Shown: positions 2,271 to 14,001, counted from the stretch's first letter. The stretch: DNA of 14,001 nucleotides from an uncultured Erysipelotrichaceae bacterium (GCA_902803795.1 CADCRC010000024.1:1-14001), one strand, 5' to 3'. Numbers and translations: made by a program. The notes: a model not told the origin generated them from the sequence alone.

Positions 2271-3500
2271 ATGAAAAAAAGAATAATACTACTAACTATT
2301 TTAATGACATTGTTAATACCAAAAATAGTAAATGGAAAAGAGTTAACATTAGAACAAATAAAAAATAATTATATAGAAATAAAATATAATGAATGTCTCG
2401 AAACAAAGCAATATCATGAAAGTATTGGAAAAGAATTTAATTCAGATTGTAATAAAAAAAATAATATAACAATAACTAATAATAAATTAGTAATAGTAGA
2501 ACAAGCAAAATTAAATAATGAAATGCAAAAAATAAAAATTACATATAGTTTAAATAAAAATATTTTATCAACAACATTTGAAGGAAATAACCCATTTTTT
2601 AGATTTTGTGATTTTAAAAAATTATTTATGGCAACACAACTTCTTCAAGGATATAGTGAAGATGAAATAAATATAATTTTACATAGTGAAAATATTGATG
2701 ATTATACTATTGAGAAAAATGGCTTTGAAATAAAAACAATAGGTACAAACGAGAATATGACTGGAGGATATGGAAAAATTGATATTTCAAAGAAAATTAA
2801 TATAGGAGATAAAAAAGAAAATACTGGAATATCAAAAAAAGATATAGAAAACTATAATGGAATTGACAGTCTAAAATCAGAATCAGAAAAAGATAATTTA
2901 GACATAGTTATAAATGGAGTAGCTATTTACAAAAGTTATAAAAATGGTAAATATATTTTATCAATAGGAGAACAAAACAAGTTAACAGATGCTTCATATA
3001 AAACATTAAAAGTAGTTAACTCAATCATATTTGATGAAGATAAAAGAGCAAATAAATATTTAGAAAAATACTATCCTAAAATTGGTGAAGATAAAAATTT
3101 TATAGGATATGAAATTGATATAAACCCAACTAATGAAAATCATTATTATAACCTATTTCCAGATTTTAAATTTATTGAAATAAGAATAGACAAAGCTAGA
3201 GCAAAAGAACAATTTTATAAAGTAAATGATAAAAAAGATAATCAAATTGGTAATTTTATACAAAAAAACAAATATATTTTTGTAGTAATAACAATATTAG
3301 TAGTAATAATATTAGGCATATTTATTCTATCAAAACTTGCAAAGAAAGATGCGTTTAAAGCAAATATTCAATCATCAAAAACAAACAAACCAACCATAGA
3401 AAACCAACAAATAAATAATCAAAATTATATACAAAAAACATCTATTGAGCAACCTAAACCAAACAATGAAACCAATCAAAATTTAAATAACAACAATTAA
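2271..3500 (+). CDS. Hypothetical cell-surface protein (Sec signal peptide plus C-terminal transmembrane anchor)
   Basis: 409 aa. The N-terminus MKKRIILLTILMTLLIPKIVNG is a typical signal peptide. A C-terminal hydrophobic helix (IFVVITILVVIILGIFILSKL) is followed by a K-rich stop-transfer sequence and an N/Q-rich low-complexity tail. A strong SD (aaaggag) lies 8 nt upstream. I recognised no domain. Confidence 0.7.
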   Translation: MKKRIILLTILMTLLIPKIVNGKELTLEQIKNNYIEIKYNECLETKQYHESIGKEFNSDCNKKNNITITNNKLVIVEQAKLNNEMQKIKITYSLNKNILSTTFEGNNPFFRFCDFKKLFMATQLLQGYSEDEINIILHSENIDDYTIEKNGFEIKTIGTNENMTGGYGKIDISKKINIGDKKENTGISKKDIENYNGIDSLKSESEKDNLDIVINGVAIYKSYKNGKYILSIGEQNKLTDASYKTLKVVNSIIFDEDKRANKYLEKYYPKIGEDKNFIGYEIDINPTNENHYYNLFPDFKFIEIRIDKARAKEQFYKVNDKKDNQIGNFIQKNKYIFVVITILVVIILGIFILSKLAKKDAFKANIQSSKTNKPTIENQQINNQNYIQKTSIEQPKPNNETNQNLNNNN

Positions 3501-3533
3501 ACAGAACTGTAAGATATGTTTAAAAAACAAAAG

Positions 3534-3580
3534 AAGAACTATTATAGAATTTAGAATCAATTATAATAGTTCTTTTAATT
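3534..3580 (+). terminator. Rho-independent terminator after the surface-protein gene
   Basis: A perfect 13-bp inverted repeat, aagaactattata (3534-3546) with tataatagttctt (3562-3574), encloses a 15-nt loop and is followed by a T-rich stretch (tttaatt). Confidence 0.5.
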
Positions 3581-3638
3581 ATATATAAAATCTTTTATTT
3601 TATCTTAATTTATAATATACTAATATTAGGTGATTAAA

Positions 3639-3962
3639 ATGAAATATATAGAAATAAAAACGAATATAGATGATTTAAATAAAGCAAAAATTATATCAAA
3701 TAGATTACTAGAAAAACATTTGATAGCCTCGTCAAATATAATTCAAGTAGAAAGCATTTATAACAGGAATAACAAACAACAAGAATATAAAGAATATATG
3801 ATAATAATGAAAACAACAATATATTTATACAAAAAAATAGAAGAAGAAATACTTAATTTACATACATATGAACTACCAGAAATATCATATCATGAAATAA
3901 CAGGACATGAAAAATATTTAAAATGGATAGATGATGAAACTAAACAAATAAAGGAGATTTAA
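3639..3962 (+). CDS. cutA: Divalent-cation tolerance protein CutA
   Basis: The protein MKYIEIKTNID...ASSNIIQVESIYNRNNK...LHTYELPEISYHEITGHEKYLKWI matches the CutA1 fold motifs (SIYxW/R, HPYE(V/L)PEI, YLxWl). The ATG at 3639 is preceded by the SD aggtga with 5 nt spacing. The ORF track's GTG at 3630 is less likely. Confidence 0.8.
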   Translation: MKYIEIKTNIDDLNKAKIISNRLLEKHLIASSNIIQVESIYNRNNKQQEYKEYMIIMKTTIYLYKKIEEEILNLHTYELPEISYHEITGHEKYLKWIDDETKQIKEI

Positions 3963-3965
3963 TAA

Positions 3966-5192
3966 ATGGAATTTTTAGAAATAGCAGAAAAAGAATATGA
4001 AAAATATTGGAATCAATCAAAATATAAAACATTTTTATCATCACCTAAAATAGGTAAACTAAGAAAACTAGAAGGATGGGATTATAAATTTGTAGGTGTT
4101 AAGGAAGAAAAAAAACTTCTTGTAGGAGCCCTTATTGTATTTAGAAAAACACATTTTAATAAAAAAGAATATTATATGCCAAGAGGACCACTACTGGATT
4201 TCAATGATATAAAATTAGTAGAATTCTTTTTTTATAATTTAAAAGATTATATTAAGAAAAATAATGGTTATAAATTAAGAATAGATCCATATATAATTAA
4301 TAAACAAAGAGATATAGATGGAAATATAGTAGAAGATGGAATAGACAATACTAAAATCAAAGAAGAATTATTTAAAATAGGATTTAAACAAATAGAAGAA
4401 GATAAAATGGAACAAGTAGGATGGATGTTTTGCCTAGATTTAAAAAACAAAACAAAAGACGAGATATTTAAAGAAATGTATCCTAGTTGTAGAAATACAA
4501 TAAGAAAAGCAGAAAAAATAGGAATTAACATCAACGAAATAGAATACAAAGAATTAGATAAATTTCAAGATATAATGGAAGAAACATCAAAAAGAAAAGG
4601 ATTTTCAAATAGAAAAATATCATATTACCAAAATATGTATAATTTATTTCATAAAGATAATGAAATTAAGTTCTTTATTAGTACACTTAATCTAACTAAA
4701 TATATAGAAAGACTAAACCAAGATATAAAAGAAAGACAAGATAAACTAGAAAGCTTAGGTAATGCAAAATACAATGATGGTCAGAAAAAAAATCTAAATC
4801 AAGAAATAGAATCAATTAATAAGAGAATAGAAGAAGCAAAAAAAATAAAAAAGGAAACAAACAAAGAAACAATAACATTATCAGGCTCAATGTTTATGTT
4901 AATAAAACCTGAAATAATATATTTATCTAGCGGAAATTATGAAGAATTTATGAAGTTTAATGCTCAATATTTAATTCAATGGGAACTTATAAAATATGGA
5001 ATAGAAAATGGATTTGATAGACATAACTTTTATGGAATTCCAGCAAACATAAATGAACATCCAAAGGATTATGGAATATATGAATTTAAAAGAGGATTTA
5101 ATGGATATGTAGAAGAATTAATAGGTGAATATGAGATGCCAATTAGCGGATATTATAATATTGAAAAAATAATTAGAAAGGTAAGGAATTAA
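3966..5192 (+). CDS. FemAB-family peptidoglycan interpeptide-bridge aminoacyltransferase (FemX/MurM-like)
   Basis: 408 aa. The N-terminal half aligns by eye with S. aureus FemA (WNQS..., GWDYKFVGVK, ALIVF, YYMPRGPLLDFND..LVEFFF..LKDYIKKNNGYKLRIDPYI). A coiled-coil insertion (res ~245-300) is typical of FemA/FemX. It starts 3 nt after cutA. Confidence 0.85.
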   Translation: MEFLEIAEKEYEKYWNQSKYKTFLSSPKIGKLRKLEGWDYKFVGVKEEKKLLVGALIVFRKTHFNKKEYYMPRGPLLDFNDIKLVEFFFYNLKDYIKKNNGYKLRIDPYIINKQRDIDGNIVEDGIDNTKIKEELFKIGFKQIEEDKMEQVGWMFCLDLKNKTKDEIFKEMYPSCRNTIRKAEKIGININEIEYKELDKFQDIMEETSKRKGFSNRKISYYQNMYNLFHKDNEIKFFISTLNLTKYIERLNQDIKERQDKLESLGNAKYNDGQKKNLNQEIESINKRIEEAKKIKKETNKETITLSGSMFMLIKPEIIYLSSGNYEEFMKFNAQYLIQWELIKYGIENGFDRHNFYGIPANINEHPKDYGIYEFKRGFNGYVEELIGEYEMPISGYYNIEKIIRKVRN

Positions 5193-6122: not shown

Positions 6123-7109
6123 ATGCAGTCGATATTAACTTATGGCAGTTATTTTGGAGTAAATATGTACCAAATAAACTTTATATATGACTCAAAAGAA
6201 TATGATATAGACAGAGAAAACACATATAGAGTATTTAAAAACTATATTATTCCAAAATATGGTATGAATTCACAAAGACAAGAACTTCATAAAGAAGTAA
6301 TACAACCATACCTCGTAGATAAAAAAGGTAATATTATTAATACACAAAACTATTATAATAGTGGAATAATAGGAGGATGTAATATACCTGAAGATATTCT
6401 ATACAAGTTTATAAAAGAACTAATAGATGATTATAATATACCAATTACAATTGTTGGCACAAGATACTATATATATGATAACAAAGCAATAGATAAAAGT
6501 GTTAGTTATTTAAGAATAAAAGCTAATTTATACGAAGAAGAAGAATTATATAAATTAGAATTTATATATTCAACAATTAGACAACAAGATTATATAAATA
6601 AAAGAATAAAAGAGATTAAATATAATAATATTAAAACAAATATTAAAAATAATGTAGTAGAAAGTATTGAATTTGATAAGAAAAATGATAAAATACTAAA
6701 TGAGTTAGTAAAAGTAGATGGAATCATAATAAATAATGGAGGTATAATTATGAAGGAAAAAAATATTTTCGAAGGAGCACCAGTTATTTCTGCAGACAAT
6801 GAAAAAGAAATAAAAGTAGAAAAAGAAGAAAAAAACAATTATAAAAATCTTACAACAGAAAAATTAAAAGAATTATCAAGTGAAGAATTAAAAAAATTAT
6901 CACAAGATATAGCAAACAAATTAGAAGAAAAGAGAAAACAATTAAAAGATATAAAAGGACGTGTAGTTGTATCTGAACAAGAATTAGAAAATTTAAGTAA
7001 TGATTTTGAAAGAAAGCTTAGAGAAGATATAATGAAAACAAATGAAAAAATAGAAAAAGCAAAAGAAGAAAAAGAAGCACTTGATGTAGCAATAGGAATA
7101 AGGAAATAA
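6123..7109 (+). CDS. Hypothetical cytoplasmic protein with a C-terminal K/E-rich coiled coil
   Basis: 328 aa. An SD aggtgg lies 5 nt upstream. The N-terminal ~210 aa is a Tyr/Ile-rich domain I could not assign. The C-terminal ~100 aa is a charged heptad-like coiled coil (EKLKELSSEELKKLSQDIANKLEEKRKQLKDIKG...). No transmembrane segment. It is followed 3 nt later by the SPFH gene. Confidence 0.7.
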   Translation: MQSILTYGSYFGVNMYQINFIYDSKEYDIDRENTYRVFKNYIIPKYGMNSQRQELHKEVIQPYLVDKKGNIINTQNYYNSGIIGGCNIPEDILYKFIKELIDDYNIPITIVGTRYYIYDNKAIDKSVSYLRIKANLYEEEELYKLEFIYSTIRQQDYINKRIKEIKYNNIKTNIKNNVVESIEFDKKNDKILNELVKVDGIIINNGGIIMKEKNIFEGAPVISADNEKEIKVEKEEKNNYKNLTTEKLKELSSEELKKLSQDIANKLEEKRKQLKDIKGRVVVSEQELENLSNDFERKLREDIMKTNEKIEKAKEEKEALDVAIGIRK

Positions 7110-8523: not shown

Positions 8524-10461
8524 TTATATTTGAATAAACTTATTTTCGTGTGGAATTACAGTTACATTATTCGAAGTATTTTCAATACTATTATTAGAAT
8601 TATTATTGTTATTTATAGTATTATCATTTGATATAGAAGTATTGCCAATATTAACTGCAACATTTTGATTTTGTATCATATTATTATTTGGTGTAACATT
8701 AGTATTTGATGATCCATTCCATATTTCAAGTACATTACAATTAGATGACCAAGGAGTAGGATTTGGCATTTCCATCCTAACAATTATTGGAATTCTAAAA
8801 GCACCACCAAAACCTAAACAAGTTCCAGATTGTAAAGTTTTTTGTTTTTCAACAATTTCATCTGAAATATTAGGAACCATTTTTCTAATATAATCAACAT
8901 CAACAGGATGATTCATCTTAAAAATTAAGAAATTAGAACACTGAGAAATAACAGTATCTGAAAGTTCTACAGGTCTTTGAGAAATAAGACCTAAAATCAC
9001 ACCATACTTACGTCCTTCTTTAGCAATTCTTTCAAATATATTATAACCAATTAAAAATCTATCAGTATCATTTTGAATATATCTATGAGCTTCTTCAACT
9101 ACAATATGAAATGGGATAGATGCTCTATCTTTTAGTCCTTTAGCAAAATCAAAAACAAGTCTCGAGAATATCTTAGTCATTACTTTAGCAAAATCATCAT
9201 CTACATCATTTAAATTTATATTTACAATTTGATATTTACGAGAATCACGAATTAGTAATGATGATAAATATTGATCTATTGTAACATATTCAGGATATTC
9301 AAAATACTTTGAATTATTACCAACAATTAAAGCATGAAGTCTAACTCTTATAGTAACCGCATCACCATAAGTTGTTTGATTTCTAAGCCATCCTTCAGAT
9401 ATTAAAGTAAAGTTTAAAGCCTTTTCTAAAGTAGCTAAATCATAATATACATTTTCTTGTGGTTCATAATTATCATATTCTTTTTTTATAAAAGATGAAA
9501 CATATTCAGTTAATAATACACTTTCACTAAATTGTCCTGCATTATCAATTAAAAAACAATCTCTAAACTTTCTTGTATAACCAATACCTTGTACTGGTGC
9601 TTCTAAATTAAACTGTGGAGTAGAACAGCTTGCTATAATAGAAAATATTTCATTTCTTTTATTAGGAGAAGTTTCATTAGTAAATAATATTGTCATTATA
9701 GCACTTGCAATTATATGATTTTTAAATTTATTAGCATCAACATCTTTTTGTGAAAATATTAAAGCAAGTTTTCTCATTCTTTCGATGATTGGAAGTTGTG
9801 AATGAGTAGTACATTGTAATAATAAAGCAAGATCTTGTACATTTAATAAATATATAGGTAATCTTAATCTTTCACCAATACCATCTGTTTCATTAGTAGT
9901 AAGATATCTATAATTAAAGTTTTTATTAATCTCATTCAAATTACTGAAAGCATTATAATACTCACCAGAAGAATCAAACAAAAGAATGTTAGATTTATAT
10001 GGATACAATCTTTCATCATGAAACATATTTTGAAATATTCTTGTAACACCACAAGATTTACCAGAACCTGAATTACCAAAGATTGCAAAATGATTCGAAA
10101 AAAAGTTATTAACTTCTAAATATACAGTTGTATCATTATAAAAAGGTGATAAACCAAGTTTCATAAATCCTGTTTTATCTTCACCTGTAATTAAAGGAAT
10201 TTCCTCTTTAGAAATAAGTCTTATTTTTGCATCTAAATTAGGCTTTCTAATTGTACCACCAATTAATTTTCCATCTTTTATTTCACCTAAAAATCTAGCA
10301 GTAACTCTATCACCATCTAAGTTATCAACCTCACCAAGAACTTTTTTATCCGCATCTTCAAAAATTAAATGAAGATTCATAACATTAGTAGTTAAGTTAT
10401 CTGGATCTTTTAATTTTATATCAGCAGTCTTATCACTAATAAAAAGAATTCTATCAAACAT
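8524..10461 (-). CDS. HerA-like / FtsK-HerA superfamily P-loop ATPase (DUF87-type) with an Asn-rich C-terminal tail
   Basis: 645 aa. The N-terminal ~120 aa is a HAS-barrel-like beta region (VLGEVDNLDGDRVTARFLGEI...GGTIRKPNLDAKIRLIS). Walker A is AIFGNSGSGKS. Walker B is the DEAH type (FHIVVEEAHRY). A sensor/Arg-finger region matches HerA (ILGLISQRPVELSDTVISQCSNFLIFKMNHPVD). The last ~90 aa are N/S/T low complexity. On the minus strand, the SD agagagg lies 10 nt upstream of the ATG. Confidence 0.8.
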   Translation of the reverse strand: MFDRILFISDKTADIKLKDPDNLTTNVMNLHLIFEDADKKVLGEVDNLDGDRVTARFLGEIKDGKLIGGTIRKPNLDAKIRLISKEEIPLITGEDKTGFMKLGLSPFYNDTTVYLEVNNFFSNHFAIFGNSGSGKSCGVTRIFQNMFHDERLYPYKSNILLFDSSGEYYNAFSNLNEINKNFNYRYLTTNETDGIGERLRLPIYLLNVQDLALLLQCTTHSQLPIIERMRKLALIFSQKDVDANKFKNHIIASAIMTILFTNETSPNKRNEIFSIIASCSTPQFNLEAPVQGIGYTRKFRDCFLIDNAGQFSESVLLTEYVSSFIKKEYDNYEPQENVYYDLATLEKALNFTLISEGWLRNQTTYGDAVTIRVRLHALIVGNNSKYFEYPEYVTIDQYLSSLLIRDSRKYQIVNINLNDVDDDFAKVMTKIFSRLVFDFAKGLKDRASIPFHIVVEEAHRYIQNDTDRFLIGYNIFERIAKEGRKYGVILGLISQRPVELSDTVISQCSNFLIFKMNHPVDVDYIRKMVPNISDEIVEKQKTLQSGTCLGFGGAFRIPIIVRMEMPNPTPWSSNCNVLEIWNGSSNTNVTPNNNMIQNQNVAVNIGNTSISNDNTINNNNNSNNSIENTSNNVTVIPHENKFIQI

Positions 10462-10490
10462 ATATAATCAACCTCTCTATTCTAATTATA

Positions 10491-10518
10491 AATTATACAT
10501 GATTTTCGACATTTTACA
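10491..10518 (-). promoter_or_regulatory. Near-consensus sigma-A promoter for the HerA-like gene
   Basis: The minus strand reads TTGTAA (plus 10518..10513), then a 16-nt spacer, then TATAAT (plus 10496..10491). The predicted TSS is ~20 nt upstream of the ATG at 10461. Confidence 0.45.
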
Positions 10519-10555
10519 AGTAATCAAAAAAAAATAAAGAAAAAAAAATGAAAAT

Positions 10556-10564
10556 ATGATAAAA
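10556..10564 (+). promoter_or_regulatory. Possible extended -10 element (TGaTAAAAT) for the divergent effector operon
   Basis: A TGnTAAAAT match sits ~30 nt upstream of the gene-A SD (ggtg at 10587-10590). No good -35 is present. The surrounding sequence is poly-A tracts, so this call is weak. Confidence 0.25.
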
Positions 10565-10597
10565 TAAAAAAAAGATTAATAGAAAGATGGTGTTAAA

Positions 10598-12157
10598 ATG
10601 GCAGGGAAAGTAACTATAATATATGATGCAATAGAAAAATCTATAACAAAACTTGATTCTGCATCTACAGAAGCAACTAATACTAATGCAAAAATAGATG
10701 ATATTATATCAGATTTATCATCACTTGGAAGTAATCACGATAATTGTTTTGCATTAACAATTGCGTCATTAGAAGAATATTCAAGTTTTATTAAAAAAAT
10801 ATGTGGAGAATTAGATGCTACAAAGTCTTTAGCAAGTACTGCAGTAAGTTCATTAAAAGAAGCTGAACAAAATGGATCAAATAATCTAGATAGTTTAAGA
10901 ACAGCATTAGTTCTATTAGGTATGGCAGAAACTTCAGTTAATGCTTTAGATTTTAAAAACTTAAATTCATATAGTACTATGGATGAATATGAAAAATCAG
11001 ATAATAAAGCTGATATATCAAGATATCAAGAATACTATAACAATTCAGGTGCAGTATTAACAGATATAATAAATAGTGCAATAGTAGATAGAATGTTAAA
11101 TAAAAATTCAGATGGATCATATAGTGTAATGACAACAGAGCAAATGAAACAATATCTAGAGGATATAACAAAAGCAAAAATATATGATAAAATTAGAAGT
11201 GGAATAGATGAACCAGGAGGACCATATGGTGGAGGCGGAGGCTCATCAGGTGGAGGCTCATCTTCAAGTGGAGGTGGAAATTCATCAAATAATCAAAATG
11301 GACAAAACGAATCTCCAGCAGCAACACCATCACAACAAGCAACTCAAGCTGTCCAAACACCACAAGAACAGCCAACATCTTCAAATTCTTCTTCACCTTC
11401 CGCAGCCTCTATACCACAACTTAGTCAAACACCAAAATTGTCAACTCCAACTTTATCATCTACAATTTCACCATTGACAAAAAAAGATACTATAACAAAA
11501 AAAGATAGTTCTTCAGATGATAAAATAAGTACATTAGATACAGATAAAATACCTGCTGCAACATCAACAATAAGTCCATTATATTCAGCAGTTACAAATG
11601 TTCCTGCAGCAAGTTCATTAATTGGAGCTACAAATGCAGCATTACCAAATATAACTACAAATAAAGAATCTGGAACATCAAGAATTAATAGTACACCAGT
11701 TACAACTAAACCAACAGTAGAAGAAATAAACAGAGTAGTAACAGAAAAAAGTAATAATATTACACCTAAAAAAGCTGATATTGCAAAAGACTTAGGAAAA
11801 ATTTCTGAAGATGCAATAAAAACACCAACTATTGAAGAAAAGCCAGAAATAATACCGGAAGATTATCTAAATAATGAAGATCAAATAACAATATTAGATA
11901 AAGCTAAGACAAATTTAGGAGGATTTGCGGCAAAGAAGACAACAGTTGAACAAGACAATGATGACAATTTTGGAAAAGCAGCAATTGGTATCGCTTTAGG
12001 AGCTGGTGCAGTAGCTGCAGGAGTAGGTGCCAAAATATATATGGATAAGAAAAAAGAAGAAACTACAACCGAAGAACAAAATAATGAAAATAATATAAAT
12101 GATGAAAGTAATTCAAGTAGTGAAATTTCATTAATTGATGAACCACTAGATATATAG
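10598..12157 (+). CDS. Tail-anchored membrane protein: N-terminal helical (LXG/WXG-like) domain, Gly/Ser linker, long Ser/Thr/Pro-rich disordered region, one C-terminal transmembrane helix and an acidic tail
   Basis: 519 aa. Residues 1-~200 are predicted helical (MAGKVTIIYDAIEKSITKLD...KIDDIISDLSSLG...). GGPYGGGGGSSGGGSSSSGGGNSS is a flexible linker. About 200 aa rich in S/T/P/Q is mucin-like. The only hydrophobic helix is near the C-terminus (AAIGIALGAGAVAAGVGAKIYM), followed by a D/E/N-rich tail. There is no signal peptide. Confidence 0.75.
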   Translation: MAGKVTIIYDAIEKSITKLDSASTEATNTNAKIDDIISDLSSLGSNHDNCFALTIASLEEYSSFIKKICGELDATKSLASTAVSSLKEAEQNGSNNLDSLRTALVLLGMAETSVNALDFKNLNSYSTMDEYEKSDNKADISRYQEYYNNSGAVLTDIINSAIVDRMLNKNSDGSYSVMTTEQMKQYLEDITKAKIYDKIRSGIDEPGGPYGGGGGSSGGGSSSSGGGNSSNNQNGQNESPAATPSQQATQAVQTPQEQPTSSNSSSPSAASIPQLSQTPKLSTPTLSSTISPLTKKDTITKKDSSSDDKISTLDTDKIPAATSTISPLYSAVTNVPAASSLIGATNAALPNITTNKESGTSRINSTPVTTKPTVEEINRVVTEKSNNITPKKADIAKDLGKISEDAIKTPTIEEKPEIIPEDYLNNEDQITILDKAKTNLGGFAAKKTTVEQDNDDNFGKAAIGIALGAGAVAAGVGAKIYMDKKKEETTTEEQNNENNINDESNSSSEISLIDEPLDI

Positions 12158-12166
12158 GAGGAAACT

Positions 12167-13822
12167 ATGGAAGTAGTAGATATTACATGGAATCCTAATG
12201 AAGAAATAAATTTTTTAGATGAAAACAACTTTGATGATTATGCTTCATATTTAGATACTATAAAAAATCAACTTGAGGATCAAGAATCTATTATAGATGA
12301 TGAACTTAATATTGGAGGATTAAATGCAGCATCATTAAATTTTGATGGCTTTTCTCCTCTATGTGAAATGGGAATGAGTATAAAAAACAATTTAAGAATG
12401 GCAATAGAAGCATTAAATGAATTAAAAAGTATGGCAAAAGATGACATGTTATATCATATGACAAATGAATGGGGTAAACATTATCAAGAAGCATATTATC
12501 ATTTGGAAGAACTAAGAGAAACATATAATAATCATTCAAATGACGATTCTAATAAAAACCAGGCATATCAAGAATATGAAGATTACAAAGATATATATGA
12601 AAGCATAAAATCTAAATATGAATCTTTAGCTGGTCAAGGAAGTGCTTCAAATGCTTTAAATATTAATTTTGTTGAAGCAAGCAAACAAAGTATTGGAAGG
12701 GAAATTATAGGAAGTGTTTCTATACCAAGCGATGTAAGACAAGGTAATTATACTGTTACAACTTTTGATACATTTAAATGGTCACATAGTGCAACAGGAC
12801 AAGGACAAATATATGATTTATGGGTTTCACAAGGAAAACCTACAAGAAATGGTCTTGCATACGTTAATGTATGTGGAGAAGATAGATATCTAATAGCTAC
12901 AACTACAGCATTAGGAAAAACTGGAGATATGGTAGATTTAGATCTTAAAAATGGACAAACACTAAAATGTTTAATAACAGATATTAAAAATCCAAATGAT
13001 TCAAATTATTCAAAATATGGTCATACTCTAACAGATGGAAGCATTAATGTACTTGAATTTGAAGTAACAAAAGAAGCATTTGATTCTCATGGACGACAAA
13101 ATCCATCTACTTCAGTTTATAATCTTGAATGGGATTCAACAAGTCCTGTAACAACAGTAAATAGTCGTGGAAGTATATTTAAAAATGGAGATATAAATAC
13201 ATTTGCAGATGATATTAATTCAAGTGGTGGATCAGGAAGAACTACAAATAAAACATATTCAAATCTAAATGGAATTAGAACAAGTAATTCTGCACCAAAA
13301 ACAACAAATATTGTATATACTAGTAAAAATAATAATAGTCAAAATATTAACGATGGAGTATCATTTCAACCAACAGGCAATGCACAAAAAGATGCAATAG
13401 CATGGGGAAAATCAATTGCAGAAGATAATAGATATGGTTATAAATGGGGTGGAGGACACAATGGCGATGATGGCTCTGGAGGTTATAATTGTTCAGGACT
13501 AATATGTAATGCATATATTAATGCTGGAATACTTCCAAAAGGAAAAGTTATCCAATCAGCTCAGATGCCATCACAATTACCAAAATATGGATTTGAATAT
13601 GTGGGTAATGCGTCAAAAAGTTATGAAGGATTGCAACCTGGAGATATTCTAGTAAAACCAGGATCTCACGTAGAAATGTATGTTGGAAACGGGAAAGTAT
13701 TAGGCGCAAGAGGAGATTATGACAAATCACCGGGTGATTCTAGTGGTGGAGAAATAAGTGTAAGAAAATATGGCAATAGCAATTGGAATGGATATCTAAT
13801 ATACAGATATACTGGAAATTAA
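12167..13822 (+). CDS. Leaderless multidomain peptidoglycan hydrolase: LXG/WXG-like helical N-domain, putative 3D/DPBB-like beta domain and C-terminal NlpC/P60 (papain-like) peptidase
   Basis: 551 aa. The SD aggagg overlaps the stop of the upstream gene, which suggests translational coupling. The N-terminal ~170 aa is helical (MEVVDITWNPNEEINFLDE...ELNIGGL...HMTNEWGKHYQEAYYHLEEL). Residues ~190-330 (RYLIATTTALGKTGDMVDLDLKNGQTLKCLITDIK...GHTLTDGSINVLEFEV) resemble 3D/RlpA-like barrels, but this is a weak call. The C-terminal YKWGGGHNGDDGSGGYNCSGLICNAYINAGILPKG...PGDILVKPGSHVEMYVGNGKVLGARGD is a clear NlpC/P60 Cys...His core. Confidence 0.8.
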   Translation: MEVVDITWNPNEEINFLDENNFDDYASYLDTIKNQLEDQESIIDDELNIGGLNAASLNFDGFSPLCEMGMSIKNNLRMAIEALNELKSMAKDDMLYHMTNEWGKHYQEAYYHLEELRETYNNHSNDDSNKNQAYQEYEDYKDIYESIKSKYESLAGQGSASNALNINFVEASKQSIGREIIGSVSIPSDVRQGNYTVTTFDTFKWSHSATGQGQIYDLWVSQGKPTRNGLAYVNVCGEDRYLIATTTALGKTGDMVDLDLKNGQTLKCLITDIKNPNDSNYSKYGHTLTDGSINVLEFEVTKEAFDSHGRQNPSTSVYNLEWDSTSPVTTVNSRGSIFKNGDINTFADDINSSGGSGRTTNKTYSNLNGIRTSNSAPKTTNIVYTSKNNNSQNINDGVSFQPTGNAQKDAIAWGKSIAEDNRYGYKWGGGHNGDDGSGGYNCSGLICNAYINAGILPKGKVIQSAQMPSQLPKYGFEYVGNASKSYEGLQPGDILVKPGSHVEMYVGNGKVLGARGDYDKSPGDSSGGEISVRKYGNSNWNGYLIYRYTGN

Positions 13823-13843
13823 TATAAATAAGGGAGGAAAAAA

Positions 13844-14001
13844 ATGGAAGTCGCAAGTATAACATATAATGATGGTGAAGAACCAGCATTTCTAAAAAAA
13901 TCAGATTATGATTCATTTTTAGAATCCTTAGATTCAGTATCTAAAACCTTGGAAGAGCAATCAGAAACAATAAATGAGGAATTACATAATGGTGGATTAA
14001 A
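13844..14001 (+). CDS. 5' end (partial) of a third paralog sharing the N-terminal LXG/WXG-like domain
   Basis: The SD agggagg lies 6 nt upstream of the ATG at 13844. The 52 visible codons, MEVASITYNDGEEPAFLKKSDYDSFLESLDSVSKTLEEQSETINEELHNGGL, align colinearly (~40% identity) with the N-terminus of the 12167 gene. The ORF runs off the window end. Confidence 0.7.
   Translation, partial: MEVASITYNDGEEPAFLKKSDYDSFLESLDSVSKTLEEQSETINEELHNGGL

Follow-up and report, generated by a model that had tools for sequence, protein, structure and literature searches.

The secretion system of type VIIb (T7SSb) is known mainly for toxins that are headed by an LXG domain. The closest described systems to the locus treated here are the TelA-LapA3-LapA4 cassette of Streptococcus intermedius (PMC5555719, bioRxiv 10.1101/2023.07.21.550046) and TelE of Streptococcus gallolyticus, an LXG effector of 514 residues that has a glycine zipper at residues 458-480 and requires TipE (PMC10434224). 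It has also been described that DUF4176 proteins are T7SSb-specific chaperones of LXG toxins, which bind disordered middle regions (PMC12478183). Here, we analysed a stretch of 14,001 nucleotides from an uncultured Erysipelotrichaceae bacterium (GCA_902803795.1, CADCRC010000024.1:1-14001; in the following, the window means this whole stretch), in which three genes in a row, termed A, B and C, run into the contig end. We found that B and C share an N-terminal head domain and are, as judged from their sequence, two-enzyme peptidoglycan hydrolases, each composed of a presumably glycan-directed middle module and an NlpC/P60 peptidase. We consider it rather likely that A, B, C and at least one further paralog past the contig end form one operon of T7SSb-like export substrates. 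An earlier note on this DNA had described a tandem array of three proteins with one shared head and three unrelated C-termini; the tandem array and the common head of B and C were found, while A does not share this head and the C-termini of B and C are related.

In its position and fold class, as well as in the variability of its tails and in its genomic surroundings, the head of B and C behaves like a type VIIb targeting domain. It is a new family that is absent from Pfam and NCBIfam and is not a detectable member of either LXG or WXG100, and a profile search of the PDB with the head found no sequence relative. An exhaustive HMMER search with a four-sequence profile against 1.84 billion representatives (E <= 1e-3) returned 41 cluster representatives. 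In the 40 that were fetched and aligned, the head begins at residue 1-19; the remaining representative, P0050, has its match at 618-731 and was left out of the alignment. Five proteins were obtained in a word-indexed search with a 33-sequence head profile. Nearly invariant residues of the head are I6, F16, G51-L52, G61, P64, H97 and E101. AlphaFold, supplied with the 33-sequence alignment, predicts three long helices (19-48, 64-122 and 127-155) with a conserved loop between the first two (pLDDT 95.2, pTM 0.82), so that the predicted head shares with LXG domains both the N-terminal position and the elongated, all-helical fold. When Foldseek was run with the head, 8 among the 50 matches listed were T7SS substrates (PPE41, TelA-LXG/Lap, EsxOP and PE8-PPE15), each of them insignificant singly.

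The recognisable tails behind this head are wall-directed. They comprise NlpC/P60 (n = 5), glucosaminidase (n = 2), phage-tail lysozyme (n = 2), beta-lactamase-like (n = 1) and Amidase_5 (n = 1) domains as well as ELLD; moreover, there are Gly/Ala-rich hydrophobic tails and many tails without a recognisable domain. Tails that are not hydrolases are found behind the head as well, and in cassettes with WXG100 and DUF4176 genes it makes up a protein by itself. A constant head with variable C-terminal domains, which is the organising logic of polymorphic toxins, can therefore be seen at the level of the family. Within the array, it is reduced to one swapped middle module between two paralogs and does not extend to three different effectors, as had been proposed.

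The gene neighbourhood of the relatives provides the T7SSb effector-type setting that the earlier note had anticipated. In L008, a WXG100 gene (26.7 bits) and a second one (34.0 bits, with a cut-off of 27.3) are followed by the head protein P0028. Locus L009 contains a WXG-like gene, a WXG100 gene, the head-only protein P0030 (191 residues) and then an A-like gene. A WXG100 gene, P0026 and a gene for a soluble protein of 125 residues follow one another in L098, and P0026 (L098 618-1688), like P0031, consists of the head fused directly to a long Ala/Gly/Pro-rich hydrophobic tail. The 125-residue protein is the sole immunity candidate, and this layout is the closest to a classical effector-immunity arrangement among the loci seen. 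Finally, L092/L093 and L096/L097 carry two small genes with a weak likeness to WXG100 (in L092 below threshold, with 17.9 and 21.5 bits). These are followed by a protein of 177 residues that consists of the head only, an analog of A with 625 or 644 residues and a DUF4176 gene; the cassettes of L092 and L096 are flanked by housekeeping genes. Small WXG100-like genes thus stand upstream of the head in L008, L009, L092, L096 and L098, and in the window it is gene A that precedes B.

With the TelA cassette these relatives have in common the small WXG100-type genes immediately upstream, and the cassettes, like those of TelA and other LXG effectors, are located apart from any core secretion locus. 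However, the sequence of the head is not detectably related to PF04740, and its loop reads GGL-x2-(A/S)LN-x2-G-x2-PL and not L-x-G, for which no conserved column exists in the head alignment. The window also differs in having the large, membrane-anchored A in the place of small partner genes, in a cargo of paired peptidoglycan hydrolase modules and in lacking an immunity gene.

Downstream of the head, B contains a conserved middle domain and an NlpC/P60 peptidase domain (Table 1). Orthologs of B with 38-41% identity are P0003, P0004, P0022 and a 563-residue open reading frame (ORF) of L090; a first-pass genome scan with B-derived peptides returned nothing. The middle domain has no match in Pfam or in the PDB, and an alignment of 10 sequences (A8) shows a mean column identity of 59%. 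It co-occurs with CHAP and phage-tail-lysozyme domains in multi-domain wall hydrolases (P0015, P0016), and its function is probably wall-directed as well. The same domain is found behind several different leaderless helical heads, namely WXG100-like heads in P0005, P0012 and P0013 (PF06013 with 26.1, 19.7 and 19.5 bits) and a further helical head in P0006, a protein whose gene follows two WXG100-type genes in L002. Upstream of this WXG100 pair and P0006, L002 has two unnamed genes (1500-2420 on the minus strand, and 3121-4071) with no Pfam match recorded. One encodes a 306-residue protein with a kinase-like glycine-rich loop and the other a secreted protein of 316 residues, built of Cys-containing repeats (GCTDK.A.NYN.KANKDDGSC). 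The peptidase part of B matches, besides PF00877, the ELLD profile PF25309 (32.2 bits, cut-off 27), and its segments NCSGL and HVEMY align with the conserved CSGL and HV-IY of PDB 8er5; these segments presumably hold the catalytic Cys and His.

The window contains only the beginning of gene C, whose first 52 residues are identical to those of P0002, a protein found by the search with B. The contig of P0002, L091, overlaps the window at 13472-14001 with one mismatch in 530 bases (99.8%), from which it follows that L091 continues this locus. Full-length C, represented by P0002, has 524 residues with a B-type head, a phage-tail lysozyme domain (residues 184-324 match positions 2-140 of the 140 in profile PF18013, E = 4.8e-35) and an NlpC/P60 domain (PF00877, E = 1.4e-9). 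The colinearity of the B and C N-termini at about 40%, which had been noticed before, proved to be sound: the first 52 residues align without gaps with 22 of 52 identical (42%; composition-adjusted BLASTP E = 7e-13), and with full-length C the similarity spans about 175 residues. Over the whole head the two proteins are about 50% identical as counted from the alignment, and from the linker through the NlpC/P60 domain by estimate roughly 60-65%, with an unrelated middle. By these comparisons B and C are paralogs with a common head and NlpC/P60 domain, in which the middle module is swapped, an unnamed domain in B and a phage-tail lysozyme in C.

Beyond C, L091 (1-2013) contains the beginning of a fourth gene (D), which starts with MEVASITYNVDD 29 nt past the stop codon of C and is a further paralog of B and C. 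In a relative, the JGI contig L090 carries a glucosaminidase plus NlpC/P60 paralog followed by the B ortholog. A strain variant of C, P0080, has a B-like stretch at residues about 108-150 (ACNHLEELKEIYNNLSDDDS...), which suggests that gene conversion or recombination takes place between the tandem paralogs and that they exchange sequence. The window appears to be an entire contig, since the product of B is recorded on one of 14,001 bases. Eight near-identical assemblies of the strain group all end at 10.7-14.15 kb, inside gene C, and it is probably the tandem paralogs that break the assembly graph. Since every public assembly of the strain group breaks at the same place, the size of the array is not readable from these assemblies.

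Peptidoglycan hydrolases have been associated with type VII systems before. In Staphylococcus aureus, the hydrolase EssH is equipped with a Sec signal peptide and acts as an accessory factor; it is not known to be a substrate. As the locus described here would do, this CHAP-domain wall hydrolase ties peptidoglycan cleavage to a T7SSb (PMC13059805, PMC10765036), whereas B and C themselves carry the substrate-type head. A closer likeness is found in mycobacterial wall-degrading effectors, such as the GH183 arabinanase EatA and predicted NlpC/P60 toxins, in which a wall enzyme is fused to a helical T7SS-type head and which are encoded with one or two Lap-like partner genes (PMC13444075). These differ in belonging to the T7SSa of Actinomycetota, in their PE/PPE-like head and in the presence of the immunity protein EatI.

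Gene A does not belong to the family of the B and C heads. It had been suggested to carry a weaker version of the same motif; however, the best BLASTP match between A and B (E = 0.14) lies in low-complexity sequence, and profile-profile comparison of the two heads gave a probability of 0.1%, while that of the A head with WXG-type heads gave 17% over 22 columns, both with alignments of 3-4 sequences, too shallow to be decisive. No Pfam or NCBIfam match was found for A, and a profile search of the PDB with its head gave no relative. Residues 1-211 have no PF06013 match at E <= 1 and no LXG match, and the turn of the A head reads L-G-S-N-H-D-N-C-F. A single-sequence AlphaFold model contains a hairpin (H2-43/H48-91) at a low confidence (pLDDT 46, too low for a fold search), with pLDDT below 50 from residue 173 on. 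The N-domain is 42-43% identical to that of the orthologs in L001 and L006, and a word-indexed search with the A profile returned 2 proteins. The A-head profile matches the gene 3' of P0030 in L009 (E = 2e-6) and, weakly, the 625/644-residue proteins of L092/L096 (domain E = 6.6e-6 for the head of the 625-residue protein, in a ten-sequence set).

The earlier description of A as mucin-like and tail-anchored agrees with our analysis, which found an S/T/P/G-rich linker and a single hydrophobic helix at residues 462-480. The helix motif AG.AAAGAAGVGAKI(Y/M)(L/M)D(K/H)(K/R) is kept in L001, L006, L007 and the 625-residue protein of L092; the latter has a disordered middle and a membrane helix, VAGVAAAGAAGVGAKIMLDHR, that hardly differs from the helices of A and the A orthologs. 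Both the S/T/P-rich linker of A and the lysines that follow its helix point to a location of its large N-terminal portion outside the membrane, and such a location would call for a non-Sec route. Going by the published description, A resembles TelE in its near-equal length (519 residues) and in a Gly-rich helix that ends some 40 residues before the C-terminus. It differs from TelE in having no LXG match, in its mucin-like linker and in the lysine cluster and acidic tail behind the helix, which are reminiscent of a membrane anchor; nor is there a gene of the TipE type (DUF5085) or for a multi-pass membrane immunity protein. With the effectors that depend on DUF4176/Ltc (PMC12478183) A shares the long disordered middle, and the analogs in L092/L096 are followed by a DUF4176 gene, although the window has none.

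In L001, L006 and L007, each B ortholog has an ortholog of A with equal layout directly upstream of it. The gene order is HerA, sepF, divIVA, A, B, ileS in L001 and L006, and A, B, pfkA in L007, so that the gene after B is ileS or pfkA. Adjacency of A and B is thus seen in the window, in L001/L006, in L007, in L009 and in an analogous form in L092/L096, which makes five loci, none of them a near-duplicate of another. Where the locus carries hydrolases, gene A holds the position that WXG100 partner genes have elsewhere. This position, together with the low-confidence hairpin in residues 1-91, suggests that the A head is a partner of B-type heads.

The operon layout that had been read from the spacers is supported by our data. 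The spacers of 9 nt between A and B and 21 nt between B and C both contain or adjoin strong Shine-Dalgarno sequences (AGGAGG and GGGAGG, Table 1), and no terminator-like site was found in 10300-14001. A promoter scan gave counts at chance level and was uninformative. Direct repeats in 10400-14001 are just short (18-30 nt) and mostly two-copy, and the search revealed no extended DNA repeat common to B and C in this region. The absence of a Sec leader, as had been stated before, is consistent with a low N-terminal hydropathy, since the best 19-residue Kyte-Doolittle window in residues 1-60 reaches only 0.56 in A and 0.42 in B, although hydropathy alone is a crude test.

Table 1. Position of the genes, domains and ribosome-binding sites of the locus in the window (aa, residues of the respective protein; KD, Kyte-Doolittle hydropathy).
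Feature	Position	Strand	Basis or remark
Gene A	10598-12157	+	ORF, 519 aa, leaderless; own helical N-domain, disordered linker, one membrane helix, acidic tail
A N-domain, aa 1-205	10598-11212	+	helical; conserved G-x-N-H-D-x-C-F turn in place of WXG100 W-x-G
A linker, aa 206-455	11213-11962	+	low-complexity, predicted disordered; S 14%, T 13%, P 8%, A 8%, G 8%
A membrane helix, aa 462-480, AIGIALGAGAVAAGVGAKI	11981-12037	+	Gly/Ala-rich; sole strongly hydrophobic 19-mer in A (KD 1.71)
A KKK and acidic tail	12038-12154	+	directly C-terminal of membrane helix
Shine-Dalgarno AGGAGG of gene B, overlapping the gene A stop codon	12156-12161	+	sequence
Gene B	12167-13822	+	ORF, 551 aa, leaderless predicted bifunctional wall hydrolase
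B head domain, aa 1-175	12167-12691	+	N-terminal helical family outside Pfam
B middle domain, aa 186-345	12722-13201	+	conserved, unnamed
B NlpC/P60 (C40) peptidase domain, aa 425-515	13439-13711	+	Pfam PF00877, 30.7 bits, cut-off 23
Shine-Dalgarno GGGAGG of gene C	13832-13837	+	sequence
Gene C, first 52 codons, cut at contig end	13844-14001	+	translation

The G+C content of the window is 22-32%, and its housekeeping genes, for PGI, a FemAB-family protein, RuvA and an SPFH-LemA pair, fit a wall-bearing member of the Bacillota. We take the organism for a low-GC member of the Bacilli that lives in the gut and is uncultured. Directly upstream of the SPFH-LemA pair (6123-7109) lies a gene for a conserved 328-residue protein with a charged, coiled-coil C-terminus, and another conserved protein, of 409 residues (2271-3500), combines a signal peptide with a C-terminal membrane helix and an N/Q-rich tail; both are without family assignment.

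The divergent neighbour of gene A is a HerA/DUF87 ATPase of 645 residues with an Asn-rich tail (8524-10461, minus strand). Orthologs that share 70-82% identity with it occur in uncultured gut Bacilli, in at least 278 genomes at the species level. Labels among these genomes include Mycoplasma sp. CAG:877, Clostridium sp. CAG:451, Candidatus Faecimonas and Candidatus Onthousia, the last of which is filed by NCBI under Bacilli incertae sedis. HerA is no more than about 1.1 kb from A in the only two lineages in which the surroundings of the A-B pair can be seen (window, L001/L006). We considered this ATPase as a dedicated motor and set it aside, because no A-type or B-type gene lies within 10 kb of HerA in 80 related genomes, and because the ATPase adjoining P0028 in L008 is a member of another family, HerA_C (E = 3e-188). 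The linkage of HerA to A is accordingly not counted as part of the system. To our knowledge, there is no precedent for HerA-driven protein export. In L013 (8235-13755) we read the genes on either side of HerA as ftsY and ffh. Most of the 80 HerA loci that were fetched show the order of a gene of about 340 residues, HerA and a gene of about 435 residues, like ftsY-HerA-ffh. A subset of the related genomes has three extra genes between HerA and ffh, none of them type VII-like (L066 4303-7221). They encode a 412-residue protein with a C-terminal membrane helix, a protein of 312 residues that resembles methionyl-tRNA formyltransferase by eye, and a membrane protein of 247 residues.

Taken together, the balance of evidence favours a type VIIb-style substrate cluster that exports wall hydrolases. 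The heads of B, C and D would form helical bundles that are recognised by the secretion machine, in the role of LXG domains or of their helical partners. They may also pair with the head of A, as is suggested by the adjoining of the two head types in the five loci. Once outside, the hydrolases would cut peptidoglycan. Several observations weigh against this interpretation. None of the 33 aligned heads matches PF04740 (LXG) or PF06013 (WXG100) at E <= 1, so that the head could not be upheld as the LXG/WXG100-like domain for which it had been taken. Neither the head family nor A matches DUF3130/DUF3958 at E <= 1, and among other T7SS partner families the 33 heads gave weak YwqH-like matches alone (best E = 0.058). 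A search of the heads against NCBIfam, including its WXG100 model, produced nothing above noise. No small WXG100-type gene was found in the window, and the proposed pairing of A and B heads is drawn from gene adjacency only. Neither the window nor the fetched loci, to which this search was confined, showed essC, esaA, essB or esxA. Finally, no immunity-like gene lies beside A, B and C in the window, nor in L091, L001, L006, L007, L092 or L096. This includes the interval between B and C, which contains no small gene, as the earlier note had already remarked.

With neither an immunity gene nor a core T7SS gene seen, a polymorphic toxin is unproven and turnover of the own wall is equally possible. 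The wall that is cut might be the producer's own, in turnover and cell separation, or that of a competitor, in antagonism; the missing immunity gene and the position of the A-B pair between divIVA and ileS in one lineage make us lean towards the producer's own. A somewhat different explanation is that of a housekeeping autolysin complex, exported without leader by a route other than type VII that is maybe linked to HerA, in which A, as a membrane anchor with a stalk, would keep B, C and D at the own wall. It would account for the lack of immunity and T7SS core genes, for an A-B pair that is kept at about 40% identity across lineages, for HerA as the divergent neighbour of A in the window and for the surroundings of the pair in L001/L006, with HerA two small genes upstream of A. 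Yet we regard it as rather unlikely, since other proteins with this head have WXG100 genes and a DUF4176 gene as neighbours, and a link to HerA is contradicted by the 80 related genomes and by the HerA_C ATPase next to P0028. If the cassette were instead an antibacterial polymorphic toxin system, A would be a TelE-like pore former with a glycine zipper, and B, C and D would be wall-degrading toxins directed against competitors. The equal overall layout of A and TelE, the swapped modules of the tandem paralogs, the mosaic of the C variant with B and the variable tails of the head family are all in line with this idea, and most T7SSb effectors are antibacterial (PMC10765036). What makes it improbable in our view is that TelE needs TipE, whereas no immunity gene accompanies A, B and C in the window, L001, L006, L007, L092 or L096, that A has no LXG match, and that its long S/T/P-rich linker, with lysines behind the helix, is more in keeping with a membrane anchor on an exposed stalk than with a toxin.

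Mobile elements are another source of such enzymes. CwlT of ICEBs1 is a bifunctional hydrolase of conjugation, with a muramidase and an NlpC/P60 domain, a signal peptide or lipoprotein signal and a place in the conjugation operon. Gene C, with a lysozyme-type module before NlpC/P60, recalls this layout; its PHROG matches include tape-measure and tail proteins, and in a tblastn search residues 238-544 of B matched an Eggerthella phage tail lysin, which covers part of the middle domain. Nevertheless, it is very unlikely that the locus is the remnant of a phage tail lysin or tape-measure gene or of a CwlT-type conjugation hydrolase. B and C have no hydrophobic N-terminus and neither a signal peptide nor a lipobox, genes for phage proteins, a relaxase, VirB4 or VirD4 are missing, and the flanking genes are housekeeping genes both in the window and in the relatives (divIVA, ileS, pfkA). 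Moreover, among 2.9 million viral contigs there is no relative of the head or of the middle domain. The catalytic part gave just weak matches in phage and plasmid records, with a single one from plasmids, to the peptidase part. The combination of a helical N-terminal region and a C-terminal NlpC/P60 domain in B could also bring to mind CwlO, PcsB and RipC, which have Sec signal peptides. In that case the head would be a coiled-coil regulatory domain that couples the hydrolase to FtsEX outside the membrane. B indeed gave an NCBIfam RipC match, but it is weak (17.9 bits with a cut-off of 425) and restricted to the catalytic domain. As B and C lack a signal peptide, the window has no ftsEX, and the head occurs also on non-hydrolase tails and alone in WXG100/DUF4176 cassettes, this explanation seems highly improbable.

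Within the type VIIb-style substrate cluster, which we prefer, a further step can be imagined, though it is doubtful. The heads of B, C and D might dock on the head of A, and a type VII machine might export the composite particle, consisting of a glycine-zipper membrane protein and several two-enzyme peptidoglycan cutters. In a bolder variant, this lineage would lack EssC and use the adjacent HerA-type ATPase as the motor. If true, the particle would be a built-in wall-breaching module and would answer how T7SSb effectors cross the thick Gram-positive wall of the target or the producer. It has been stated that factors of the attacker cell must help toxins to cross the wall of the prey, and none has been identified (PMC10765036, PMC5555719). 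Wall hydrolases of the substrate type that are encoded beside a membrane-inserting partner are an obvious candidate for this task.

Overall, a head family different from LXG appears to do the same job here, with wall hydrolases as the cargo. If this is true, more kinds of type VII substrates exist in gut Bacillota than have been catalogued so far. Should the enzymes act on the wall of the producer, the locus would represent a type VII-like route that serves routine autolysins.

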